In this document: positions 4,119-63,572 of the stretch, one piece after another | Layout of the letters: every line of letters begins with the position of its first letter | Numbering within the stretch: position 1 is the first letter of the stretch | Assembly: GCA_964473485.1 (NCBI GenBank) | Contig: CAYYPH010000002.1 | Span: 59,143 to 123,142, forward strand | Source: an uncultured Prolixibacteraceae bacterium | Lineage (GTDB): Bacteria > Bacteroidota > Bacteroidia > Bacteroidales > FEN-979 | DNA length: 64,000 bases | Reading direction: 5' to 3' | Notes under the pieces: model-generated | What the model was told of the DNA's origin: nothing | The model's input: only the letters and a program-made list of their open reading frames with translations | Databases searched by the model: none | Position numbers and translations under genes: made by a program

Positions 4119-4908
4119 GGTTGTATTGATAACAGGAGCCGCCGGGGGACTTGGAAAAGTCCTTGTCACTACCTTCGCCTCCACCGGATGGCAGGTGATT
4201 GCCACGGATATTGGGGCTTTCGACACCTCAACTCACGGTTCCGGAATCCTTTTTTACCCGATGGATGTTACCTCCGGTACTTCTGTTGAAATGGCTGCAA
4301 AGGAGCTGGGACAAAAATTTCCGGTCATCCACCTGATCATCAATAATGCAGGGATGGATAAGTATTTCCCACTCTCTGAAGCCCCGGCTGAGTTGCTCCG
4401 GCAGATATTCGAAGTGAATTTCTTCGGGGCCTGCAGGGTCAACCAGGTTTTTCTCCCGATGTTGAAAACACCCGGTGGCAGGATCATTCACATCACCAGC
4501 GAAGGCTACCACCTCACCGGCCCGTTCATGCCCTATCCGCTTACCAAGCGCCTGCTGGAGTCGTACTCGAGATCTTTAAGGATTGAATTGGGGTTCAGGG
4601 GTATTGATGTGATCGCCATCAGGCCGGGAGCCATCGAAACCCCTTTGCTCGGGGTAGTCAGGAACCTCGATACACCGGCGGGTAACTGGAAACTCGAAAA
4701 AGAATTCCGGCAATTCGCAACAATGGCATCCCGTGAAATCGGAAAAGTGCTGACCCCTGAAGCCGCAGCCGCTTTCGTACTAAGGGTGGCGGTTAAAAAA
4801 AAACCGCGGCATCTTTACCGGATCAACAACATGCTGAAACTGAGAATTGCCGCAATGATGCCGTTTTTCGTCATAGAAAAGGCATTGAAAGCAAAATTCG
4901 TGAAATGA
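4108..4908 (+). CDS. short-chain dehydrogenase/reductase (SDR)
   Basis: TGAAGGLG cofactor motif, NNAG, and a YPLTK (YxxxK) active site. The start is uncertain. I favour TTG 4108 just before KVVLITG, because the track's ATG 3949 would overlap 170 nt of the upstream gene. Confidence 0.7.
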   Translation: MENKVVLITGAAGGLGKVLVTTFASTGWQVIATDIGAFDTSTHGSGILFYPMDVTSGTSVEMAAKELGQKFPVIHLIINNAGMDKYFPLSEAPAELLRQIFEVNFFGACRVNQVFLPMLKTPGGRIIHITSEGYHLTGPFMPYPLTKRLLESYSRSLRIELGFRGIDVIAIRPGAIETPLLGVVRNLDTPAGNWKLEKEFRQFATMASREIGKVLTPEAAAAFVLRVAVKKKPRHLYRINNMLKLRIAAMMPFFVIEKALKAKFVK

Positions 4909-4956
4909 GATTGGCAGTTGTCTGAGCAGGACAAATCAGTTTTACAGACTTCCTGA

Positions 4957-5406
4957 TCAGCCAAGCAACTGTTTTACGATCTGTGAGATCATCTTGTTGT
5001 CGGCCTTGCCCGCCAGCTCTTTCGAAGCAAGCGCCATCACCTTTCCCATCTCTTTGATGGAGGATGCTCCCGACTTTGAGATCAGTTCACGGATGATTTC
5101 TGTAACTTCAGCTTCGGATAATTGTGAAGGAAGGTATTTTTCGATAACAGAAGCTTCGAAAAGCTCTTTTTCTGCAAGGTCGGCCCGGTTGGCATTGCCG
5201 TATATCTCGGCCGATTCACGGCGCTGCTTGACGAGTTTCTGAAGAATCTTCAGTTCCGTGGCCTCGTTGATGGCATCACCGCCTCCCTCTTTCGTCTTTT
5301 CAAGCAACAATGCCGCTTTGATTGCCCTGAGCGCCTCCAGTTTTTTGGCATCCCTGGCCAGCATCGCGGCCTTGATGTCATCGCCGATTTTCAGTTCGAG
5401 GCTCAT
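4957..5406 (-). CDS. yqeY: GatB/YqeY domain protein
   Basis: MSLELKIGDDIKAAMLARDAKKLEALRAIKAALLL is the characteristic YqeY N-terminus. The gene abuts the ftsZ stop. Confidence 0.85.
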   Translation of the reverse strand: MSLELKIGDDIKAAMLARDAKKLEALRAIKAALLLEKTKEGGGDAINEATELKILQKLVKQRRESAEIYGNANRADLAEKELFEASVIEKYLPSQLSEAEVTEIIRELISKSGASSIKEMGKVMALASKELAGKADNKMISQIVKQLLG

Positions 5407-28528: not shown

Positions 28529-28958
28529 TTGATTGTGACTAAACAGTGGTAAAAAATAAGGTTTATTAACCGATTTGTGTGTAATCAGTTGATTGACAGT
28601 AAGGGCTAAAACCTAACAATAGGATTGGAATTATGAATATGATAAATTTAAGTCAAAAATCTAAAATTAAACAATCCTCACAACAAATTCATAAAATTTA
28701 TATTCAGACCAAATAAAGTTATTTCTTGGACATTATTGGACGTTAATGTAAAAACCATCCAGCAATCGAGGTTTCGTTATTGATGTTTGCGGATTTTTCA
28801 GCTTGCCGGCTGTAGCCCAATTGTAACAAAATGGGTTTCTTCCGAAAGCAAATTAAGCATAATTCCTGTTCATTGCTGTTTTGAATTTTGGAATTTTGCA
28901 TGCAAACGATTGTTATTTTACTTTCAGCATTAAAAGTAAAATAAGAGATTTTTTATTT

Positions 28959-28966
28959 TATCTTTG
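28959..28966 (+). promoter_or_regulatory. -7 box TATCTTTG
   Basis: TAnnTTTG consensus, 17 nt upstream of ATG 28983. Confidence 0.4.
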
Positions 28967-28982
28967 GAAAAAATCTTTACAT

Positions 28983-30125
28983 ATGATCAACCTTGATACA
29001 TTCAATCCCGGACATTTTGAAATGGGATACGAATATAAATATTTCCTGCCTGAAAAGGTTAATACCGACTGGCAATGGAGTGACCCAACCATTAATGTAC
29101 TATTGGAAAAAGCAGCCGTAAGTCTTGGAGCGCTCAACTCCTATGCGTTATTGGTCCCAGATATCGATCTGTTCATCCAGCTGCATGTAATAAAAGAAGC
29201 CGTACAGTCAAGCAGGATCGAAGGAACCCGCACCAATATCAATGAAGTGGTTATGCCGGAGGACGAAGTAAAGCCGGACAGAAGAAAAGATTGGCGTGAA
29301 GTTAATAACTATATCCGGGCACTAAATGAAGCCGTTAAAGAACTAGGTGTTTTGCCTATTTCAACCCGCTTGATCAAAAAAACACACAGTATTCTACTGG
29401 AGAGCGTCAGGGGTGAACATAAGCATCCGGGAGAATACAGGACAAGCCAGAATTGGATTGGCGGCAACAGCCTTCATGACGCAGCATTTATACCGCCTCA
29501 CGAGCGATATGTTAATGAGCTGATGGGGGACCTTGAAAATTTTATCCACAATGACCAGATCAGAATACCGGCCTTGATCCGTGCAGGCATCATTCATTAC
29601 CAGTTCGAAACGATACACCCGTTTCTTGATGGAAATGGAAGGATAGGAAGGCTCTTAATAACTCTTTACCTGGTTAATCAAAAGATCCTGGACAAGCCCT
29701 TGTTATACCTGTCATCCTATTTTGAAAAGAACAAGGGTCTTTATTATGATAACCTGATGATGGTACGAATGAAAGCTGACATGGCACAATGGCTGAAATA
29801 TTTTCTTGTCGGCATTGAACAGACTTCTGCTCAAGCAATAACAACACTGACGGCAATTCTTGAATTGAAGGCGCATATTGACCGTGAGGTACAGGTCAAT
29901 TTCAAGCGTAGGGGATACGCAGCACTTAAGTTATTCAATACACTTTATAAAAATCCGGTTGTTAATGTCGAATCTGCAGCCAGGATATGTGGTTTGAGTT
30001 ATAAGGCAGCAAATGATTTAATCCTTTTAATGCAGAAAACCGGTTATTTGACTGAAACCACTGGTCAAAGCCGAAACCGACTTTTTATTTTCCAGCCATA
30101 TCTTGATATTTTCGAAAGAAGATAG
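28983..30125 (+). CDS. Fic-family protein (AMPylase type) with N-terminal inhibitory helix
   Basis: Fic motif HPFLDGNGRIGRLL. An upstream SSRIEG fits the (S/T)xxxE(G/N) auto-inhibition motif. The C-terminal region is winged-helix-like. Start taken at ATG 28983. Confidence 0.9.
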   Translation: MINLDTFNPGHFEMGYEYKYFLPEKVNTDWQWSDPTINVLLEKAAVSLGALNSYALLVPDIDLFIQLHVIKEAVQSSRIEGTRTNINEVVMPEDEVKPDRRKDWREVNNYIRALNEAVKELGVLPISTRLIKKTHSILLESVRGEHKHPGEYRTSQNWIGGNSLHDAAFIPPHERYVNELMGDLENFIHNDQIRIPALIRAGIIHYQFETIHPFLDGNGRIGRLLITLYLVNQKILDKPLLYLSSYFEKNKGLYYDNLMMVRMKADMAQWLKYFLVGIEQTSAQAITTLTAILELKAHIDREVQVNFKRRGYAALKLFNTLYKNPVVNVESAARICGLSYKAANDLILLMQKTGYLTETTGQSRNRLFIFQPYLDIFERR

Positions 30126-30211: not shown

Positions 30212-30213
30212 TT

Positions 30214-30585
30214 GTGGAGCTGGAGGGATTCGAACCCTCGTCCAAACAGGTAGCAAAAGTGCTTTCTACATGCTTAGCTTCCGGTTGGTTGTCGGGATCC
30301 GGATGGTCAGAAGCGGTCCTGCCGAATCCTTAGTTCTTTTTATTTCACCGCAACTGCAGAACAAAGCCGCGATTATCCCGACTTTTGCGATGCCTCGTCC
30401 GGAACACCGTCAGGAGGGGTTTTCCGGGAGACAAGACGCGCCTAATTTCTAAAATTAAGCAGCCAGTCTGTAAGAATAATTGTCGCCATTTATTGGCTGT
30501 GTGAACTGACTTTTTACGAGATCTGCTCACGAACCCTCGGCATGCTTACAATCCCACTTCCCTGCTGTCAAAACCGGTCAGCCCC
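30214..30585 (-). ncRNA. ssrA: tmRNA (SsrA)
   Basis: 5' GGGGCTGACCGGTTTTGACAGC. 3' GGACGAGGGTTCGAATCCCTCCAGCTCCA, with a G3-U acceptor pair. Internal tag reading frame GGC GAC AAT TAT TCT TAC AGA CTG GCT GCT TAA (30454-30486) gives GDNYSYRLAA. Confidence 0.92.
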
Positions 30586-56111: not shown

Positions 56112-56147
56112 TAAAAAAAGACTGACAATCGGAAGATTATCAGTCTT
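56112..56147 (-). terminator. rho-independent terminator directly following the tRNA 3'-end fragment
   Basis: 13-bp stem 56118-56130 / 56135-56147 with a GGAA loop. Its only irregular pair is G-U on the minus strand (C-A on plus). A U-run follows on the minus strand. Confidence 0.55.
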
Positions 56148-56150
56148 TTA

Positions 56151-56172
56151 GGTAGCCCGTAGGGGAATCGAA
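56151..56172 (-). other. tRNA 3'-end fragment (T-loop to acceptor end): putative att core / left junction of the integrative element
   Basis: The minus strand reads TTCGATTCCCCTACGGGCTACC, that is T-loop + 3' T-stem + acceptor 3' strand + discriminator + CC. The 5' T-stem partner (AGGGG) and the rest of a tRNA are absent upstream. Confidence 0.45.
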
Positions 56173-56340: not shown

Positions 56341-57657
56341 ATGGCAACAACAAAGTTACTTTTAAAAACTGAAAAAGAAAATAAAAACGGAAAAATTCCA
56401 CTTTTTCTCAGAATCATCCAGGACCGGAAGCCGACCTACATTTCGCTGGGGGTCTATCTGAAACAAAATGAATGGAATGATGATGAGAAGAAGGTAAAGA
56501 AAACACACCCGAATTCAACCCGGTTGAATGCATACATCGCAAAAAAAGTTGCGGAGGCTGAGGCGAAAATGGTCGAACTTCAAACCAAACAGAAACGACC
56601 CAGCGGGAAAAGAATCAAAGCCGAAATCATGGGTGGCGCTGCTGTGAACTTTTTTGAATTTACCAAGGCTCACCAGGAGGCGATAGAAAAGGCCGGGCAT
56701 ATCAATATGGCCAAAAGGATAAAATCCATTCAGGAAAAACTAAAGACGTACCTGGGTCATGAAAACCTGTTTCTCACGGATATTGATGTGGAGTTCCTGG
56801 TTAAGTTCAATGATTACCTGGCTGGCACTCTTCAAAATAAAACAAACACCATCACCAGCAACATGAAATTGATCAGAAGAATGCTGAATGATGCCATCCG
56901 CCAGGGGAAGATGAACCGGAATGATTATCCGTTTTACTCTTACCGGTTGAAAAATGAGCCCACAAAAAGAGATTACCTGGCAGAGGACGAGTTGCTGGCT
57001 ATTGAAAAACTAGCGCTTGAGCCTGGTTCAAGGTTGGAAGAGGTCCGGGATATGTATGTCTTTTCGGCCTATGCCGGAGGAATCAGGGTGTCGGACCTGC
57101 TTATGCTTCGATGGAGAAATTTTGATGGAGAGCGGCAGCATTTCAAGGTGCTTAAGACCGGGAAGGAGCTACACATCAAACTGCCGGAAAAGGCACTTGA
57201 AATTCTTAAAAAATATCAGACAGCGGAAAGCAAACCCGACTCCCTGATCTTCTCCATACTCCGGTCAAATATTGATTTTGACAATCCAAAACAGGTCACC
57301 GGGGCCATTTCATCGGCCACCGCCCAGATCAATGAACGGCTAAAGATAATTGCAGATAAGGCCGAAGTAGAAAAAAGGATAAGTTTCCACACCGCCCGAC
57401 ACACTTTTGCCACACGCGCTCTAAGAAAAGGGATCAGGATCGAATATGTATCCAAATTGCTTGGCCATGCCACCATCAAAGAAACACAGGTTTATGCCAA
57501 GATTGTTGATGAGGAGTTGGATAATGCCATGGATGTTTTTAACGAGAAAAAGGAGGTGACGAAGAAAAGGGTTGCTAAAAAGACTGGAACTTCAAACAAA
57601 CCAATTGCAAAACTAAAAAAATATATATTTAAAGGAATAACTTTAATAGTATTTTAA
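56341..57657 (+). CDS. int: tyrosine recombinase / phage-type integrase (Bacteroidetes N-terminal arm-binding type)
   Basis: Catalytic region RVSDLL...HTARHTFATRAL...LLGHATIKETQVYAKI (R..HxxR..Y). Confidence 0.93.
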   Translation: MATTKLLLKTEKENKNGKIPLFLRIIQDRKPTYISLGVYLKQNEWNDDEKKVKKTHPNSTRLNAYIAKKVAEAEAKMVELQTKQKRPSGKRIKAEIMGGAAVNFFEFTKAHQEAIEKAGHINMAKRIKSIQEKLKTYLGHENLFLTDIDVEFLVKFNDYLAGTLQNKTNTITSNMKLIRRMLNDAIRQGKMNRNDYPFYSYRLKNEPTKRDYLAEDELLAIEKLALEPGSRLEEVRDMYVFSAYAGGIRVSDLLMLRWRNFDGERQHFKVLKTGKELHIKLPEKALEILKKYQTAESKPDSLIFSILRSNIDFDNPKQVTGAISSATAQINERLKIIADKAEVEKRISFHTARHTFATRALRKGIRIEYVSKLLGHATIKETQVYAKIVDEELDNAMDVFNEKKEVTKKRVAKKTGTSNKPIAKLKKYIFKGITLIVF

Positions 57658-57661
57658 ATAT

Positions 57662-57712
57662 TTAAAGTAATAGCTTTATATTTGCATCGATAAATTAAAG
57701 TAATAGCTTTAT
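57662..57712 (+). promoter_or_regulatory. two perfect 18-bp direct repeats TTAAAGTAATAGCTTTAT bracketing a -7 box TATATTTG
   Basis: Repeat 1 is 57662-57679; repeat 2 is 57695-57712 and overlaps the ATG of the HTH gene. The -7 box is 57677-57684. Likely an autoregulatory operator. Confidence 0.5.
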
Positions 57713-58166
57713 GAAGACACAAGAGTTGATCTTAATCCAAACCGATAAAAGGATAAGGAAGATAGCCCGAATAAAGGATGATAATCCGCCAAATGGTTGG
57801 ATTTACGCAATTCGGATGGCCCTGGGAATGTCGATGCGTCAGCTTGGGAAATTGGCTGAAATTACGCCACAAGGAGTTAAAGATATAGAAACCCGGGAGA
57901 AAAATGGGAATATCACCCTCGCATCCTTAGAACAAATAGGCAATAAGCTAAACATGAAGCTGGTTTATGGTTTTGTACCTTTAGATGGATCTTTGCAAAA
58001 AATGATCGATAAGCGCGCGATTGACTTAGCAACAAAAATTGTAGCAAGAACGGCAAATACCATGAAATTGGAAGATCAGGCAGTGAGTCAAGCCATGCTG
58101 AAAAAATCAATAAAGGCCAAAGCCCAGGAAATCAAGCAAAAAAATCTAAAGGCACTATGGGAATAA
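57711..58166 (+). CDS. 'mobile mystery protein A' (XRE-type HTH)
   Basis: PPNGWIYAIRMALGMSMRQLGKLAEITPQGVKDIETREKNGNITLASL matches my memory of the TIGRFAM mob_myst_A family. Confidence 0.8.
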   Translation: MKTQELILIQTDKRIRKIARIKDDNPPNGWIYAIRMALGMSMRQLGKLAEITPQGVKDIETREKNGNITLASLEQIGNKLNMKLVYGFVPLDGSLQKMIDKRAIDLATKIVARTANTMKLEDQAVSQAMLKKSIKAKAQEIKQKNLKALWE

Positions 58167-58756
58167 AATTGGATTATATAGGAGGTCAGACCCCTCTGGA
58201 TGAAATAGAGATTTCTGGTCTAAAGATCAAGACTATTACAACTGTCGGGGAGCTCAACGAACATGAACAGAACAATATTGAAGAGGCTTTTCATTGGGCG
58301 CTTAACCGGAAAATTCCCATAGAGACCCTATTAACCAGAGAATGGATTTACAACATGCATTACAGGATGTTTAATAATGTTTGGGATTGGGCCGGAGAAA
58401 AACGCACGTCAAATAAAAATATCGGAGTTGATAAATATGCTATTGAACCGGCATTAATCCACATGCTCGATGATATAAAGTATTGGATTGAAAATAGAAC
58501 TTTTGATCCTGTCGAAATTGCAATTCGATTTAAGCATAGATTGGTGTCAATCCATTGCTTCCCAAATGGCAATGGACGACATGCGAGGTTATGTGCTGAC
58601 ATACTGATAAAACAATTGACAGGGAGGGATGGCTTTACGTGGGGAAGTCATCACAGTCTATATCAGGAAAGCGAGTTACGGAGTGCTTACATCGATGCTT
58701 TAAAGAAAGCAGATACTGGTGATTACCAGCCATTAATTGAGTTTGCTTGTTCTTAA
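58157..58756 (+). CDS. 'mobile mystery protein B' (Fic-domain protein)
   Basis: Fic motif HCFPNGNGRHARL. Overlaps the upstream HTH gene by 10 nt. Confidence 0.85.
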   Translation: MGIKLDYIGGQTPLDEIEISGLKIKTITTVGELNEHEQNNIEEAFHWALNRKIPIETLLTREWIYNMHYRMFNNVWDWAGEKRTSNKNIGVDKYAIEPALIHMLDDIKYWIENRTFDPVEIAIRFKHRLVSIHCFPNGNGRHARLCADILIKQLTGRDGFTWGSHHSLYQESELRSAYIDALKKADTGDYQPLIEFACS

Positions 58757-58830: not shown

Positions 58831-59259
58831 TTACCTCCGGTTTCTCAGGAAAAAAATTCCAAAGGCCAGTAATGCAATTAACCCGGAAATGAGCCAGGGG
58901 ATGGCTGATATAAGGTTGTCAAGTTTGTCGGAGCGGACAATCTTAATCTTTTCGACCGGGAATCGGCGATCGATATAGATGGTATCAGCCTTGCATTTTC
59001 CGCGAACGAATAAAGTATCATGAAGGCGATGAATGGCCACTTCAAGCCGGTCTTTGTGAATATAAACGGTGTCATGAATGCTGTCGATATTCAGGATTGT
59101 GTCAGCTTCAGCCTGGGGGATGGGTATTGAGTCCTTGATATACAGGGTATCGGGGATCTTTAATTCCGGGTGAAGAGCCAGAAGGCGGTGGAGGCGTTCG
59201 GTAGGGGAGCAAGATGTTGAAAGCAGGATGAGGATCAGGATTGAGAGGATGGTTTTCAT
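58831..59259 (-). CDS. lipoprotein with a C-terminal TM anchor (unimolecular-spanin-like)
   Basis: MKTILSILILILLSTSC lipoprotein-type signal and a C-terminal helix AIPWLISGLIALLAFGIFFL + RNRR. Last gene of the lysis-type cassette. Confidence 0.5.
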   Translation of the reverse strand: MKTILSILILILLSTSCSPTERLHRLLALHPELKIPDTLYIKDSIPIPQAEADTILNIDSIHDTVYIHKDRLEVAIHRLHDTLFVRGKCKADTIYIDRRFPVEKIKIVRSDKLDNLISAIPWLISGLIALLAFGIFFLRNRR

Positions 59260-59357
59260 GGGAGGGATTTTTGAATATCGAATATTGATCAACGAAATAC
59301 GAAGTATTCACGAACACCCGAAATAAATAAACATGATCGTGAGTAATTTTAAAATAC

Positions 59358-59918
59358 CTATAAATAAGCGTTCAGTCGGTTATACCAGCCGCGTTCAAAT
59401 CGACTTTGAGACGGATCCTTTTTGATGATGTTTACAATGAAGGCAACCCTGGCATTGTATACCTGGATCAGGAATTGATATGGATTCGCACGATTAACCG
59501 CTTTCAGGGTGGCTGGACCGACAATGCCATCGGCAGCAACTCCGAGGATCCTTTGGGGGATGATGATGCCCCATTTGCCGCTGCACCAAAGCCAGTCGAC
59601 CAGAATATCGGCCACCTTTTGACTCCGGATCTCATCGGCATGCCAGCGATCCCAGTAATATTTTCTGAGTACCATCAGGGAATCGTCTGCTGTGAGCAGA
59701 CGGATATCGTCGATATCGATATCGGAATCACCGTCTTTGTCATACCCTACTTTTTGCCAGGTGGAAAGGGTAACTCCCCTGTTGGTTGGACCTCCGTTAT
59801 CAATGGGGTCATTGCTGAACAACCCTTCACTCTGATAGAGTTTAATTGCGAGATGCTTGAAATCGGCCATCGTTTTGAATTTTAAGGATGATGGGTAATC
59901 AGGTTTAAAAGGATTCAA
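59358..59918 (-). CDS. GH108-family muramidase with peptidoglycan-binding C-terminal domain (endolysin-like)
   Basis: YQSEGLFSNDPIDNGGPTNRGVT (EGGxxxDPxDxGGxTxxGIT-type motif), and ...DGIVGPATLKAV in the PG_binding_3-like part. An alternative start is ATG 59870. Confidence 0.85.
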   Translation of the reverse strand: MNPFKPDYPSSLKFKTMADFKHLAIKLYQSEGLFSNDPIDNGGPTNRGVTLSTWQKVGYDKDGDSDIDIDDIRLLTADDSLMVLRKYYWDRWHADEIRSQKVADILVDWLWCSGKWGIIIPQRILGVAADGIVGPATLKAVNRANPYQFLIQVYNARVAFIVNIIKKDPSQSRFERGWYNRLNAYL

Positions 59919-60097
59919 CCCTTCGATGTTATTGTCAGGATGGTGTCCCGGACGTAAATGAGGCCGAGGATGGTGGGTAAAAAGGCTGTGAATTCACCCA
60001 GGGTGATAATTCTCATAAAAAGCAGAACTACCGCCAGGATCAACAATATGATGCCAAGGACGGTAGTTTTCCAGTTGTTAAAAATTCGCTCTTTCAT
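59915..60097 (-). CDS. 60-aa two-TM protein (holin-like)
   Basis: Two hydrophobic helices. Its stop abuts the muramidase start. Confidence 0.5.
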   Translation of the reverse strand: MKERIFNNWKTTVLGIILLILAVVLLFMRIITLGEFTAFLPTILGLIYVRDTILTITSKG

Positions 60098-60099
60098 GG

Positions 60100-60372
60100 T
60101 TATTTTGTATTTCTGAGGTAAATCTGAATTTCATCGATGCGCTTGAGGATCTCTTTGGTGTCGGCTTTGATGTCGGACCTGATGATGTCGAAGTTCCTGG
60201 TGTTGTCTGTCTTGTGCAGCAAAAGATCCTGTTTAAGGTTGGTAATTTCTACATTCAACTCTGCCAGACGGATTTCCATATGAACCCAAATAGAGACGAT
60301 TGCCAGCAGGAAGGTAAACAGACTAATTGCCTGCGCGAGTGGCATCCCCAGTATGTTCGATTTCATGGTCAT
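60100..60372 (-). CDS. 90-aa N-terminal-TM + coiled-coil protein (holin/antiholin-like)
   Basis: TM helix AISLFTFLLAIVSIWV followed by a charged helical tail. Lies 2 nt upstream of the 60-aa gene. Confidence 0.45.
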   Translation of the reverse strand: MTMKSNILGMPLAQAISLFTFLLAIVSIWVHMEIRLAELNVEITNLKQDLLLHKTDNTRNFDIIRSDIKADTKEILKRIDEIQIYLRNTK

Positions 60373-60449
60373 GGCATTTGAGTTTTTGTAAGTTTTGGAT
60401 TAAAAAAGTGCCCCTTTTCTTTGGAGCAGGGGCACTTTTATGGCACATA

Positions 60450-61106
60450 TTACTGGACGACACTGGCAGCATCCGCGCCAGCTTTGAACTGAATGATACC
60501 CTTCGGAGCTCCTGCAATGGTTTGCGAATAATCAAGGGTCATTACATGAAGGGCGGTTTGAGCGTCTACCCAATCGGCAGGGAGGTTAATCTCGGCAGAT
60601 CCGGCAGAACGGAGTTCAACATCGGGGAACAGGATCACCTTGTTGGTGGTGCAGTTGATCATGATGAAGGTCAGCGCCGAAGCCAGTTCATCGGGATTCA
60701 CCGTGTTCGGATTCCAGCTGAAATCAATCACCTGGTTGGGCAGTGAAGTCATCACGACGTTTGAAATCGTACTCCCTTCAAAATCACATAAAATGATCTT
60801 GGTGTGGTCGAGCACCGGTGGATCGCCGATAAAGGCGTTCTTTACATTGATGCTCACAATTTTGTTGAATGGGGACATTTTCTTCATCGTTCCGGCATAT
60901 ACCGAATTGATGAGGGGTAGAACCTGACGGATCAGGTACACAATGGTCGAAAACTTAGTCCGCTGGGTGGACTGAGCGATTGTGTTAGGATTCTTCACTC
61001 CTGCGGGTTTGGTGCGCATGGTATTCACACCAAACTGTTTGGAGAACACGGCAGTTCCGAACATTTTGCGGGTTCTGCCTGTGATGGGGTTTTGAACAAT
61101 TGCCAT
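60450..61106 (-). CDS. 218-aa protein of unknown function (possibly the Bacteroidota DUF6266-type family, from memory)
   Basis: Clean ORF. The N-terminal pattern ...G.T.KMFGTAV....G.N.MR.KP..V.NP.T..Q..QR.KF resembles that family. No enzymatic motif seen. Confidence 0.5.
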   Translation of the reverse strand: MAIVQNPITGRTRKMFGTAVFSKQFGVNTMRTKPAGVKNPNTIAQSTQRTKFSTIVYLIRQVLPLINSVYAGTMKKMSPFNKIVSINVKNAFIGDPPVLDHTKIILCDFEGSTISNVVMTSLPNQVIDFSWNPNTVNPDELASALTFIMINCTTNKVILFPDVELRSAGSAEINLPADWVDAQTALHVMTLDYSQTIAGAPKGIIQFKAGADAASVVQ

Positions 61107-61166
61107 GGTAGTTAGTTTTAAGGGTTAATACTGAATTAGTGGACTTGACACGGACTTGATACGGGT

Positions 61167-61319
61167 TTAATGCGGTCCGGGTCTTTTCCTTTTGTGCCTG
61201 ACGGCAAGCCTGTCAGTTTCCTTCACCGTGGTTGAAGGGTTTCTTTCGGCAAATTTCCTGGTGGTGTACTCACCATTGTCGGCACGACGGTACCGGCTTT
61301 TCTTTCTAATTGTTGACAT
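61167..61319 (-). CDS. 50-aa highly basic peptide
   Basis: MSTIRKKSRYRRADNGEYTTRKFAERNPSTTVKETDRLAVRHKRKRPGPH. The ATG is 39 nt downstream of a consensus -7 box and is the first gene of the minus-strand cassette. Confidence 0.4.
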   Translation of the reverse strand: MSTIRKKSRYRRADNGEYTTRKFAERNPSTTVKETDRLAVRHKRKRPGPH

Positions 61320-61365: not shown

Positions 61366-61636
61366 CAGGCGTTCAAGTCAGATCCCATTAAATCATCTGA
61401 TTGATAGATATTTATGCATTAAATTGCATTGAAATGTTTCGAGGTAATCACGGGTAAACTGGCAGGATGTAATTATCGATGGTTCTAATTTTTTGGGGGA
61501 AATAGAAACCTGCAAAAAATCAAAATCTTAGGCGCCTTTGACCGTAGTAAAATTTGACGCGCAAGGCTGCCGGTCATTTTTTTACCCCTAAAAAAATAAA
61601 AATTTAAAAAAATGAAGGCACCCAAAGGGCACCGGC

Positions 61637-61669
61637 CTTGTGCGGCAATATTTTACGCAGGTATCTTTG
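61637..61669 (+). promoter_or_regulatory. candidate promoter CTTG-N21-TATCTTTG facing the structured block
   Basis: Exact -7 consensus at 61662-61669 and a -33-like CTTG at 61637-61640, ~55 nt upstream of module 1. Confidence 0.35.
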
Positions 61670-61725
61670 AATAAGATTTGGATTTTTAACGCTTCCGACA
61701 TGGCGAATGAATGACGGCATACTGC

Positions 61726-61841
61726 CCCCACTGCATGAACGCGAAGGATGAGCGTGAAATGCGGTGGGGACAATTGCCAGAGAACAAAGAATCACAACCC
61801 ACCAACCGGCGTTTTTTAAACGTGGGTTGGTGGTGGAGGTA
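61726..61841 (+). repeat. structured module copy 1
   Basis: Hairpin 61726-61769 with loop GAAGGATGA, hairpin 61799-61833, then TGGAGGTA at 61834-61841. Confidence 0.7.
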
Positions 61842-61855
61842 GCCAGCTGACCAAC

Positions 61856-61978
61856 TGCCACTTTATAAGCCCGAAGGATGAGGGCGAAATAATGTGGCAG
61901 GAACTGGCCGGAATTCCGAAAACCAACTGACATTAACCGGCCACGCACTTTAGTGGCGGGTTAATGGTGATGGAGGTA
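61856..61978 (+). repeat. structured module copy 2
   Basis: Hairpin 61856-61899 with the identical loop GAAGGATGA, hairpin 61931-61966, then TGGAGGTA at 61971-61978. Confidence 0.7.
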
Positions 61979-63125
61979 TACGTTGCTGCTCAAACTTCAT
62001 AAAGGCAATGCATTTACCGGTGCCGGAAAAAGGAAAATGGATAGCCAGTAACGCATTAAAGTAACTTTTATGGAGGGTGAGCGGAGCTCTCCTGACATGC
62101 GCCACTGGTTTTCAGCAATAAAATAGTACAAGGGAAATTGGTGCATGGCAAGGGTGCGTAGTGAAGCCCGGAATAACAAGTTATCCTTAATGGGTTACAG
62201 ATCGAGGTAAAAATGCTTTGCCATTACTCGTGGTCCTGAATAACCCCAACAGTTGGATTAACAGACAAGGGCAACTTGCTGTACCCGATTGGAGGTGGAT
62301 TCCGCTTTTCCGGCATCCGCCGGAATGAGTGGTGCAGTATGTTGCCCAATCAGGATTTACGCCCGGAATACGAAAGCTGATGGCTGCCGCCGTTTTTTCT
62401 TCAACGGGGGCTGGCAGCGACGAATGCTGGCGGACCTATGCTGCCGGTAAATTCAGGCCCGGGGCAATGAGCGGCGAGGATTGGGCTGGTGGAATAATTT
62501 ATTGAAAAGCCTGAGCCATCGCCAGCCCAAGACTGTGCAAGCCGCGAATGATATAGACTGATAATGCAGGCAGCAAACCCAAAAAACTCGTTTTACTTGT
62601 ACCGGAAAATGATGGCAAAGCACTTACTCAAACCTCTCGTACTACTAACGGGGATATTTAACATAATTTGGTTATAGGACAAGGCACACCCGGAAAAATA
62701 GATATGCAGTGCCTTGTACTATAACTACATGTTATGTTAATATAGCCCTATCTCGACCTACAAAGGGACATAGAATGCTGACTACCAGGGATGTTCCCAG
62801 TACGAAGGATGTTGCAACATCTTATGTGACAAGCTTTGGCAAATTCAAAATAAGGCTGTTTGGTAATACAATTCCGGGTAGTTGATACACCAAATAAACC
62901 TCCCAGCTGCAGAGCCGCGGGGTATCCTCGGGAATAACTTGCAGTAACCGGAAGCGGTGGGGAACTAACCCCAAATGCGATTAGAAAAAATACAATAACC
63001 AAAGTTAACAACCCCAAGCTGAAAATGTTAGAATATAATGAAGGAAACCGTACAACCCGGTGTAGGATTATTATGACAACATAAGCCATAAGAATCAACC
63101 AGAGGTATTAATTCGGAAAAAGCAA

Positions 63126-63572
63126 TCATTTCATATTTTTATTTATCCTCATCAACACTTGCAGAGTCCTCTTGTCTTTATCACCAAAAAAGAATTTACG
63201 GAGTACCTGGTTAAACAGTGACTTTTCATCTTTATCAATCACGCTAAACAAAGTCATTGAAGATTTCAGCTTTATATCGTCGGGACTACCGAAAATGTCA
63301 AAAGCCGATTTCCCTTCAATTTTCAATAATGCAGAGGTTAATTCTGCTAAACGACTTCCTAAAATGGGATGGGCGAGATATTGCCTTGTTTCTTCAAGGT
63401 CTCTTAATCCATAATATTGGGCTTCCCGGCTTAAACCTAACCCTTGAATCTGTGGAAAGATAAACCACATCCATCCGCTTTGTTTTTGACCATTTTTAAT
63501 CTCCTCAAGCACATTTCCGTAAGTATATTCTTGAGCCCTTAGAAAACGGTTTAAGTTATATGATACCTGCAT
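63126..63572 (-). CDS. DUF1810-family protein
   Basis: NLNRFLRAQEYTYGNVLEEIKNGQKQSGWMWFIFPQIQGLGLS...AHPILGSRL is the characteristic DUF1810 pattern. Confidence 0.85.
   Translation of the reverse strand: MQVSYNLNRFLRAQEYTYGNVLEEIKNGQKQSGWMWFIFPQIQGLGLSREAQYYGLRDLEETRQYLAHPILGSRLAELTSALLKIEGKSAFDIFGSPDDIKLKSSMTLFSVIDKDEKSLFNQVLRKFFFGDKDKRTLQVLMRINKNMK

Follow-up and report, generated by a model that had tools for sequence, protein, structure and literature searches.

The question raised by this locus is whether DNA that is dense in hairpins and empty of genes acts as RNA, as folded DNA, or as both. The locus lies in a 64,000-nt stretch from an uncultured Prolixibacteraceae bacterium (contig CAYYPH010000002.1), here called the window, between the gene for a 50-aa basic peptide and a DUF1810 gene. 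An original prediction made from the letters of the window placed one candidate large structured RNA at 61637-63100. The block is a four-part non-coding region structured on the plus strand, with a promoter hairpin first, then one to four modules of two hairpins each, a core of ~650 nt, and a terminal hairpin with two inverted dif-like sites (Table 1). It is the control region of small islands that adjoin tRNA and tmRNA genes and belong to an undescribed family. Each of its parts resembles a known kind of device; the combination and the phylum are new.

The account favored here, a tentative choice that falls just short of probable, is that the promoter in its duplex form makes a modular RNA with a predicted length of ~1.05 kb. 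In this account, the modules are putative binding sites for a basic protein of the island, and the two flanking hairpins would be devices that act at the DNA level. The RNA is suggested by the promoter in 24 copies, folding of the plus strand, covariation in the modules and core, the lack of an open reading frame (ORF), and co-directional cargo genes. Covariation of the promoter hairpin and the presence of the dif-like hairpin in 39 loci argue for the DNA-level devices.

Extent and Non-Coding Character of the Block

The comparison draws on 148 loci (68 from genomes and 80 from metagenomes, numbered with the prefix L) that were fetched via DUF6266, a protein encoded in the operon to the left of the block. 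Close homologues of the block (~80-90% identity by blastn and nhmmer) cover window positions 61,500 to 62,750/62,800. About 13 metagenomic relatives share 61,500-62,795 (L009, L010, L011, L077, L078, L080, L081, L083, L084, L086, L088, L111, and L128). The extent first assigned to the block needs to be shifted: the conserved unit begins at ~61,505, with the left arm of the promoter hairpin, and stops at about 62,750-62,800, and the right quarter of the predicted block is unrelated DNA. This tail has an nhmmer match in L077 only and is missing from L128, where 62793 is joined directly to 63112; its 116-aa ORF (62748-63098) matches no family. The block is richer in GC than its right flank, as had been noted, but not richer than its other surroundings.

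The absence of a coding signal holds up. The alignment of 61,960-62,800 (nine sequences) has a mean column identity of 86%, and across the nine homologues there is no conserved ORF and no codon periodicity, with variable columns split 120/106/113 by phase. The minus-strand ORFs have no PHROGs match. A degraded gene is rejected on these three grounds.

Searches against known families are also negative. With Rfam 15, the whole window gives only tmRNA at gathering score, with no match to GOLLD, ROOL, HEARO, OLE, raiA, introns, or riboswitches, and the segment 61300-63200 returns only sub-threshold matches to miRNA-type hairpins at E <= 10. No Rfam family appears in the non-coding block of 11 related loci. 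Similar DNA is absent from phage and plasmid collections, and a scan of viral contigs for the loop motif gave eight chance matches, mostly within coding sequence. Since no Rfam family matches, an undescribed structured RNA stays the leading reading for 61,675-62,750. As a neighboring feature, L083 carries a piece of a group II intron (D1-D4-7, 75 bits in Rfam) directly past the end of its block (L083:1629-1764, minus strand).

The block shares a general character with GOLLD, ROOL, and other large ornate RNAs, which are long, ORF-free, rich in helices, carried in mobile or prophage-like DNA, composed of variable and conserved domains, and of unknown function. It differs from them in having no covariance-model match even at E <= 10. 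Furthermore, it is built from tandem paralogous two-hairpin modules that vary in number and tolerate insertions, and it is flanked by hairpins that would act at the DNA level. It thus adds a large modular structured non-coding region that has no Rfam relative.

Two-Hairpin Modules

The window carries two modules of ~130 nt in the array A-C, while relatives carry one to four modules of three paralogous types, A, B, and C. Both hairpins described for each module, H1 and H2, are present. H1 is composed of P1 (6 bp), a 1x1 mismatch, P2 (4 bp), an internal loop with GA opposite GAA, P3 (4 bp), and a 9-nt loop, which reads GAAGGAUGA in module A. This loop had been reported as identical between the copies but is not invariant, and its consensus across copies is GARRNAYGA. 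The supposed U61732-G61763 wobble is a conserved mismatch position (T/G, G/G, T/T). H2 consists of a stem, a G.G or U.U mismatch (G.G in module A), a second stem of 5 bp, and a U-rich loop, and it is followed by a linker. The unpaired purines of the modules (GA/GAA and GARRNAYGA) are invariant. An inverted-repeat scan recovers both H2 hairpins and H1 of the second module (I7, I9, I17), and a direct-repeat scan recovers the 130-nt spacing of the H1 hairpins (D1).

The modules fold and covary. Segment 61700-61985 folds beyond its shuffles on both strands (z = -8.5 on the plus strand and -7.9 on the minus strand). Over 26 consensus pairs in 25 module copies from 14 loci, 97.5% of alignment cells are paired, against 77.8% in shuffles and 33-41% with the partners slid. 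Both sides change in compensation in 15 of the 26 pairs, so the compensatory change described between the two copies is real; many of them set the A, B, and C paralogues apart from one another and therefore amount to few independent events.

Type C modules score 100-118 bits in L009, L077, L081, L086, L111, and L128. The covariance model finds more copies in L090-L100, L093, L094, L096, L112-L115, L122, L123, and L132, always on the strand opposite DUF6266. The array is A-B-C in L010, L077, and L081, and it consists of an A/B chimera followed by C in L088. L083 has a truncated H1, and in it a fourth module type is duplicated around part of the core. Such variation in number (1-4), together with chimeric and truncated modules, is expected of repeated independent binding units.

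Repeated hairpins with a conserved purine-rich loop and a variable repeat number are also found in CsrB/RsmZ-type sponge RNAs, and the window's loops contain ARGGAUG. However, the GGA is not conserved in the block homologues, whose loops include GAAGCAUGA and GAGGAACGA, and the block's unit is 130 nt with two hairpins. A CsrA-type sponge was rejected because of the unconserved GGA. Two other candidates were set aside. Type III toxin-antitoxin RNAs have repeats of ~36 nt and an endoribonuclease toxin, whereas the units here are 130 nt and Pfam and PADLOC identify no toxin family. A K-turn or sarcin-ricin reading of the GA/GAA loop misfits the consensus, judged by eye, in its strand lengths.

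Gene Insertions between Modules

The expectation of one compact large RNA is not borne out, as loci differ in module number (1-4), 1.5-3.5 kb of genes can lie between modules, and the core is split or duplicated in L083. In L084 and L086, 1.45 kb separates modules B and B', and in L078, 3.5 kb that includes a DDE transposase occupies the same B/B' boundary. The inserts of L084/L086 and L078 are mutually unrelated, and each starts past a diverged version of the usual linker. All inserted cargo genes are co-directional with the island promoter. These insertions indicate that the modules are separable and that the region need not be one contiguous fold. The L084 insert (L084:3576-4816), which is the same in L086, encodes a 232-aa Lys/Ala/Pro-rich, histone-H1-like protein and a NUDIX hydrolase.

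The inserts bear on a reading in which the modules are cis elements of a long leader or polycistronic transcript, serving the processing, stabilization, or antitermination of cargo, with the window as an empty version. It would account for the promoter-co-directional genes between B and B' (the Lys-rich protein and NUDIX in L084/L086; the DDE transposase and others in L078) and for copies of the promoter hairpin ahead of other cargo in L128, L083, and L087. However, most relatives and the window have no downstream gene, and the window's next gene, DUF1810, is on the opposite strand. The ORF-less core of ~650 nt is as conserved as coding DNA, and the variation of the inserts from locus to locus makes them look secondary. 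A leader of this kind is improbable.

A second reading makes the modules structure-specific recombination sites that capture gene cassettes, as attC sites and pdif modules do. Attractive in this respect are the unrelated inserts at one boundary flanked by B-type modules, the A/B chimeras and varying module number, the tyrosine recombinase encoded in the island, and a structure that is kept, with its G.G mismatch, while the sequence is poorly conserved. Indeed, attC arrays and Acinetobacter pdif modules also have structured or Xer-type sites that bound gene modules differing between relatives. The island nevertheless lacks an IntI-type integrase and RYYYAAC/GTTRRRY core sites, and its single dif-like hairpin does not flank cargo, while attC sites have no conserved purine loops or promoter. 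With only two insert types and a diverged linker kept, insertion plus homologous recombination between repeats explains the arrangement equally well, and capture of cassettes by the modules is very unlikely. An integron attC array in the strict sense is rejected, as the integrase is of the Arm-DNA-bind_5/SAM_5 kind and the H2 arms (ACCAACC / GGTTGGT) misfit RYYYAAC/GTTRRRY.

Conserved Core and Folding Strand

The core includes a 23-bp long-range helix and an H2-like hairpin (62381-62416) with the same G.G mismatch as the modules. Weak matches to the R1 module model fall inside the core at the same place in 11 loci. Among the further hairpins singled out in the original prediction, the helix at 62481-62530 is conserved and covaries, as does the tip at 62679-62717, which belongs to the terminal hairpin. 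The window alone has the hairpin at 62308-62325; at this place, the helix that is conserved pairs 62293-62302 with 62311-62321. In the core as a whole, 13 of 207 pairs change on both sides, against 6.5 +/- 1.7 in shuffles, and none of 500 shuffles reaches the observed value.

The plus strand is the folding strand, as had been proposed. In RNAalifold, the core alignment folds at -210.6 kcal/mol on the plus strand and at -161.6 kcal/mol on the minus strand, and G.U cells number 158 and 47, respectively. The modules show the same direction of difference (-47.7 vs -42.5 kcal/mol).

A Hairpin That Encloses the Promoter

The motif GGCCTTG-N21-TAnCTTTG is kept on the plus strand in 24/24 distinct copies and points into the modules. 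It fits the -33/-7 promoter consensus of Bacteroidota. The -7 box that had been seen pointing into the block (TATCTTTG, 61662-61669) falls within this motif. The motif itself lies in the right arm of an imperfect palindrome, whose outer stem joins 61515-61530 to 61672-61687. The -33 element GGCCTTG (61634-61640) is paired to CAAGGCT (61562-61568), while the -7 box sits within a conserved internal loop.

This hairpin provides the strongest new covariation in the block. In the alignment of 24 sequences, 20 of its 49 pairs show compensatory change, and pairing reaches 96.7% of cells (88.1% in shuffles, 37-50% after sliding of the partners). T.G wobbles occupy ~43 cells on the plus strand, against 2 A.C cells. 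Folded as DNA, the plus strand reaches -38.3 kcal/mol (z = -5.3) and the minus strand -32.4 kcal/mol (z = -3.2). The left arm is upstream of the implied transcription start; therefore, RNA from this promoter cannot contain the hairpin. Compensatory change had been taken as the signature of RNA, which is unsafe here, where 20/49 covarying pairs are found in a promoter-enclosing hairpin with its left arm ahead of the start. Helices here covary where no plausible transcript extends; in mobile elements, covariation is therefore not enough by itself to tell RNA from folded single-stranded DNA (ssDNA).

Frpo/ssi elements are reportedly the ssDNA promoters of conjugative plasmids described by Masai and Arai in 1997. 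If the hairpin works on ssDNA, it would be, to our knowledge, the first ssDNA promoter with the Bacteroidota -33/-7 code and outside conjugative plasmids. Like Frpo/ssi (PMC11541004) and M13 ori(-), the block has a long imperfect hairpin that rebuilds a duplex promoter, with the upstream element paired and the downstream element mismatched. Also in common, the neighboring genes are templated by the folded strand: the operon lies on the minus strand to the left of the hairpin, and by its geometry RNA made on the folded plus strand would run to the left, which is sense for the basic-peptide/DUF6266/lysis operon. The differences are that the block's motifs are Bacteroidota -33/-7 rather than sigma-70 -35/-10 and that its promoter in duplex form also points into a 1-kb non-coding region; the block is known from sequence alone. 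Moreover, no means of existing as ssDNA was identified, as Pfam, PHROGs, and PADLOC scans of the island proteins and the synteny of the 148 loci reveal no Rep, relaxase, origin of transfer (oriT), or capsid gene, and no single-stranded DNA-binding protein was found in the island.

The motif extends beyond the close relatives. A second island family of ~30 loci, the L012 group, has an analogous palindrome with a -7 box, and the promoter motif is conserved there although the downstream sequence is unrelated. The L012 group also carries an unrelated G-rich, ORF-poor non-coding region of ~1.15 kb, roughly 750-1907 nt upstream of DUF6266, and it retains a dif-like hairpin, followed by a U-run and then ~270 conserved nt.

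Some islands hold extra copies of the promoter hairpin (L083:4162-4331 and 4834-5002; L087:3629-3802 and 4320-4483; L128:8281-8467), and one L128 copy precedes a DUF6088 (AbiEi-like) gene pair. A circular permutation first considered for L128/L111 was replaced by an extra promoter-hairpin copy together with a short local promoter. On the minus strand, a hairpin that resembles a terminator and leads into a T-run (61617-61633) is conserved in relatives; its plus-strand counterpart is a small side branch within the promoter hairpin.

Terminal Hairpin with Inverted dif-Like Sites

The last strong hairpin of the block had been counted as an RNA feature but is a pair of inverted dif-like recombinase sites and thus a DNA feature. 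It is the most widespread part of the block, found in 39 loci as 32 distinct sequences, and its orientation relative to DUF6266 is constant. The E. coli dif site reads GGTGCGCATAA-TGTATA-TTATGTTAAAT (PMC3025954). The left arm of the window is the exact reverse complement of the E. coli XerD arm TTATGTTAAAT (11/11), and the right arm matches it at 9/11 positions in the window (TTATGTTAATA), with a full match in 10 distinct homologues. Across loci, the left side is laid out as ATTTAACATAA, a variable centre of 5 nt, and then TTATAGGAC, and the right side as GTACTATAA, a variable centre of 6-7 nt, and then TTATGTTAA(A/T)(T/A). A second class of hairpin combines ATTTTACATAA with TTATGTAAAT or TTATGTAACT, near the B. 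subtilis arm TTATGTAAACT.

The arms are conserved, whereas the centres (5 nt vs 6-7 nt) vary and are mostly non-complementary, so the folded hairpin consists of two paired arms around a bubble. The tip (62679-62717) varies in sequence and keeps its pairing, and the hairpin as a whole folds as DNA with z = -6.1. The left arm (GATATTTAACATAA...TTATAGGAC, window 62650-62680) also loosely resembles the origin core of phiX174 (GATATTAATAAC...CTATAGAC).

A comparable arrangement is attP(+) of CTXphi, in which attP1 and attP2, two opposed dif-like sites with unequal centres, form a forked hairpin in ssDNA (PMC3089051). The island shares with CTXphi and integrative mobile elements exploiting Xer (IMEX) an inverted dif-like pair that folds into a hairpin, a conserved XerD-type arm (TTATGTTAAAT or TTATGTAAAT), and unequal, unpaired centres. 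Its sites are 31-63 nt apart, in self-complementary DNA, rather than about 90 nt apart, and its XerC-side arm (TTATAGGAC / GTACTATAA) is a candidate only. Two defining features of IMEX, the lack of an own recombinase and integration at the host dif site, are absent; the island has its own integrase and adjoins tRNA/tmRNA genes. It is therefore not a member of this class, and the likeness concerns how the site may work. If true, a folded dif-like pair in an island with its own integrase would widen the known use of Xer recombination by mobile elements.

A Xer-type site, a strong promoter, and a long purine-rich structured transcript region in an island with no replication gene also recall ColE1. 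By this analogy, the RNA would be a pre-primer for Rep-independent replication of an excised circle, with the dif-like hairpin as a cer-like resolution site, and the terminator-like hairpin on the minus strand (61633-61617) could be added to its parts. The parallel is one of analogy only. Sites of the cer type are single and have accessory sequences, unlike the inverted pair here, and tolerance of inserts and a variable module number misfit a folding pathway like that of RNA II. A pre-primer is barely credible.

RNA, Folded Single-Stranded DNA, or Both

In the favored account, RNA would run from about 61,675 to about 62,750 off the duplex promoter, with the long terminal hairpin as its predicted 3' end. 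The invariant purine loops on covarying stems would be repeated, putative sites for the 50-aa peptide or for the basic N-terminus of DUF6266, and the RNA may be a scaffold or sponge linked to the DUF6266-lysis operon, which is transcribed divergently. Both flanking hairpins, the promoter one and the dif-like one, would act at the DNA level, which implies that the plus strand is also single-stranded at some stage. There, RNA synthesis from the folded promoter would run to the left, sense for the operon, and Xer-type recombinases would act on the folded dif-like site. As the promoter hairpin is not in its own transcript, at least the promoter and terminal hairpins point to folded plus-strand DNA.

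Several points weigh against this account. Folding of the plus strand has been selected beyond the reach of the RNA; by parsimony, the modules and core could be ssDNA structures too. Covariation in the core is thin, and most of its helices never vary. The insertions of 1.5-3.5 kb and the split core of L083 remove the need for one contiguous RNA, and no clear terminator follows the terminal hairpin in the window. The absence of Rep, relaxase, and oriT leaves the proposed ssDNA without a source in the island proteins and syntenic loci, and structure searches with DUF6266 give generic FN3-like matches only. Inverted repeats may also stay symmetric by gene conversion, without selection on folding. 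The wobble asymmetry of the promoter hairpin argues against gene conversion but rests on few independent events.

The first of these points leads to a credible, if doubtful, alternative, in which the whole block is folded plus-strand ssDNA rather than RNA. The island would have an ssDNA stage, whether taken up after lysis, packaged, or transferred. On this view, the promoter hairpin would serve ssDNA as a promoter or a priming signal, in the manner of Frpo or M13 ori(-). Hairpins of the modules and core would take part in priming, coating, or packaging, and the terminal hairpin would be a site like attP(+) of CTXphi. One strand is favored by all structures, and the promoter hairpin has the expected form: it covaries (20/49 pairs), its -33 element is paired, its -7 box is in a bubble, and its left arm is outside its own RNA. 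The plus strand is the template of the adjacent operon, like the T-strand genes behind Frpo (PMC11541004). The dif-like sites are inverted, with conserved arms and an unpaired centre in 39 loci (cf. PMC3089051), and proviruses of Bacteroidetes microviruses have been proposed to use dif-like sites (PMC3091885).

Other evidence counts against ssDNA as the sole form of the block. The scans and synteny described above reveal no Rep, relaxase, oriT, or capsid gene, DUF6266 is absent from the viral contigs of IMG/VR, and the island has its own integrase and is seated next to tRNA genes instead of at dif. A promoter of the normal double-stranded kind is directed into the block, and G.U pairs make up 8.5% of core cells, a better fit to RNA than to DNA. 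Expression of a lysis cassette on entry to a new host also makes little sense.

The RNA account and the ssDNA alternative can be joined in a broader proposal, which is unlikely as a whole: the islands would be a new Bacteroidota mobile element that is active as ssDNA and leaves via its lysis cassette, using three plus-strand devices, while the duplex form encodes the ~1-kb modular RNA. The three devices would be a -33/-7 hairpin promoter that expresses or primes from ssDNA, a hairpin array that the basic peptide or DUF6266 would bind to coat or package the DNA, and a CTX-like folded dif site. If true, one sequence would have been selected to fold both as DNA and as RNA.

Island Family and Gene Context

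The islands carry a tyrosine integrase, DUF6266, a 50-aa basic peptide, and a GH108 lysis cassette (Table 1), and they define an undescribed family, with over 300 homologues of DUF6266. Synteny of the operon is kept in 30-40 of the fetched loci. In 30 loci, a tyrosine integrase (22-97% identical to that of the window) lies beyond the operon on the opposite strand, and 10 loci other than the window have a tRNA or tmRNA gene immediately on the far side of the integrase. At the left end of the window's island, homology to L077, L083, and L087 begins at 56143-56163, and the 22-nt tRNA fragment is identical in L077 despite differing flanks. The fragment and the flanking tRNA/tmRNA genes indicate that these are small islands seated beside such genes.

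Table 1. Positions of the block, its parts, and the island genes in the window.
Feature	Position	Strand	Details or basis
Promoter hairpin	61515-61687	+	~170-nt imperfect palindrome; 24-sequence alignment
Module A	61722-61853	+	H1 61726-61769, H2 61799-61833, linker; covariance model R1, 126 bits
Module C	61852-61984	+	H1 61856-61899, H2 61931-61966
Conserved core	61985-62652	+	~650 nt; 9-sequence alignment
Terminal hairpin	62653-62746	+	94 nt, two inverted dif-like sites; 39 loci
Terminal hairpin, left arm	62656-62680		ATTTAACATAA 62656-62666, centre TTTGG 62667-62671, TTATAGGAC 62672-62680
Terminal hairpin, right arm	62719-62742		CTATAA 62719-62724, centre CTACATG 62725-62731, TTATGTTAATA 62732-62742
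Non-conserved tail, outside the unit	62750-63111		nhmmer
tRNA 3'-end fragment	56151-56172	-	TTCGATTCCCCTACGGGCTACC (22 nt); island left end, just upstream of the integrase gene
Tyrosine integrase	56341-57657	+	Pfam Phage_integrase, Arm-DNA-bind_5, Phage_int_SAM_5
Basic-peptide/DUF6266/lysis operon	58831-61319	-	Pfam and PHROGs matches, translations, synteny
50-aa very basic peptide	61167-61319	-	First in operon transcription order
DUF6266	60450-61106	-	Second in operon
p90	60100-60372	-	Third in operon; transmembrane helix and coiled coil
GH108 endolysin	59358-59918	-	Fourth in operon
p153 lipoprotein	58831-59292	-	Fifth in operon; C-terminal transmembrane segment

A search for the right end of the island located none: no att direct repeat was found in the window, and 8 of the 10 loci bearing a tRNA or tmRNA gene have no tRNA 3'-end repeat of at least 12 nt. 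The short tRNA-end matches in L120 (12 nt) and L145 (17 nt) are implausible as island ends. The tmRNA 3' end was ruled out as the source of the fragment at 56151 because the sequences differ.

DUF6266 proteins are nearly all 218 aa long, and a full-text literature search found no mention of them. In the AlphaFold model (pLDDT 85), the N-terminus is basic and disordered, and there are helices and a sandwich of the FN3-like kind. A capsid role is unsupported, given only generic FN3-like matches in PDB and BFVD, no PHROGs match, and the absence from IMG/VR.

The sole Rfam match of the window is its tmRNA gene (30212-30585, minus strand), with the tag peptide GDNYSYRLAA. A Fic_N/Fic gene (28881-30125) lies just past the tmRNA 3' end and may mark a second island at ssrA. 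Within the island, a helix-turn-helix (HTH)-Fic pair (57711-58756, plus strand) is the only PADLOC match and falls in the candidate defense families PDC-S04 and SoFic, with a capH-like HTH. This cargo also travels with a more distant DUF6266 (69% identical) in L112, L114, and L115, where the cargo itself is 85% identical. Between the integrase and HTH genes, three direct repeats of ~18 nt (TTAAAGTAATAGCTTTAT) with 33-nt spacing (57629-57712) resemble an operator or iteron array.

To the right of the block, the DUF1810 gene (63126-63572) is a local insertion. L128 (4737-4826) retains just the 3' end of DUF1810 and the downstream flank, and L009 (5555-5752) retains just the 5' end, followed by an IS1595-like transposase ORF.

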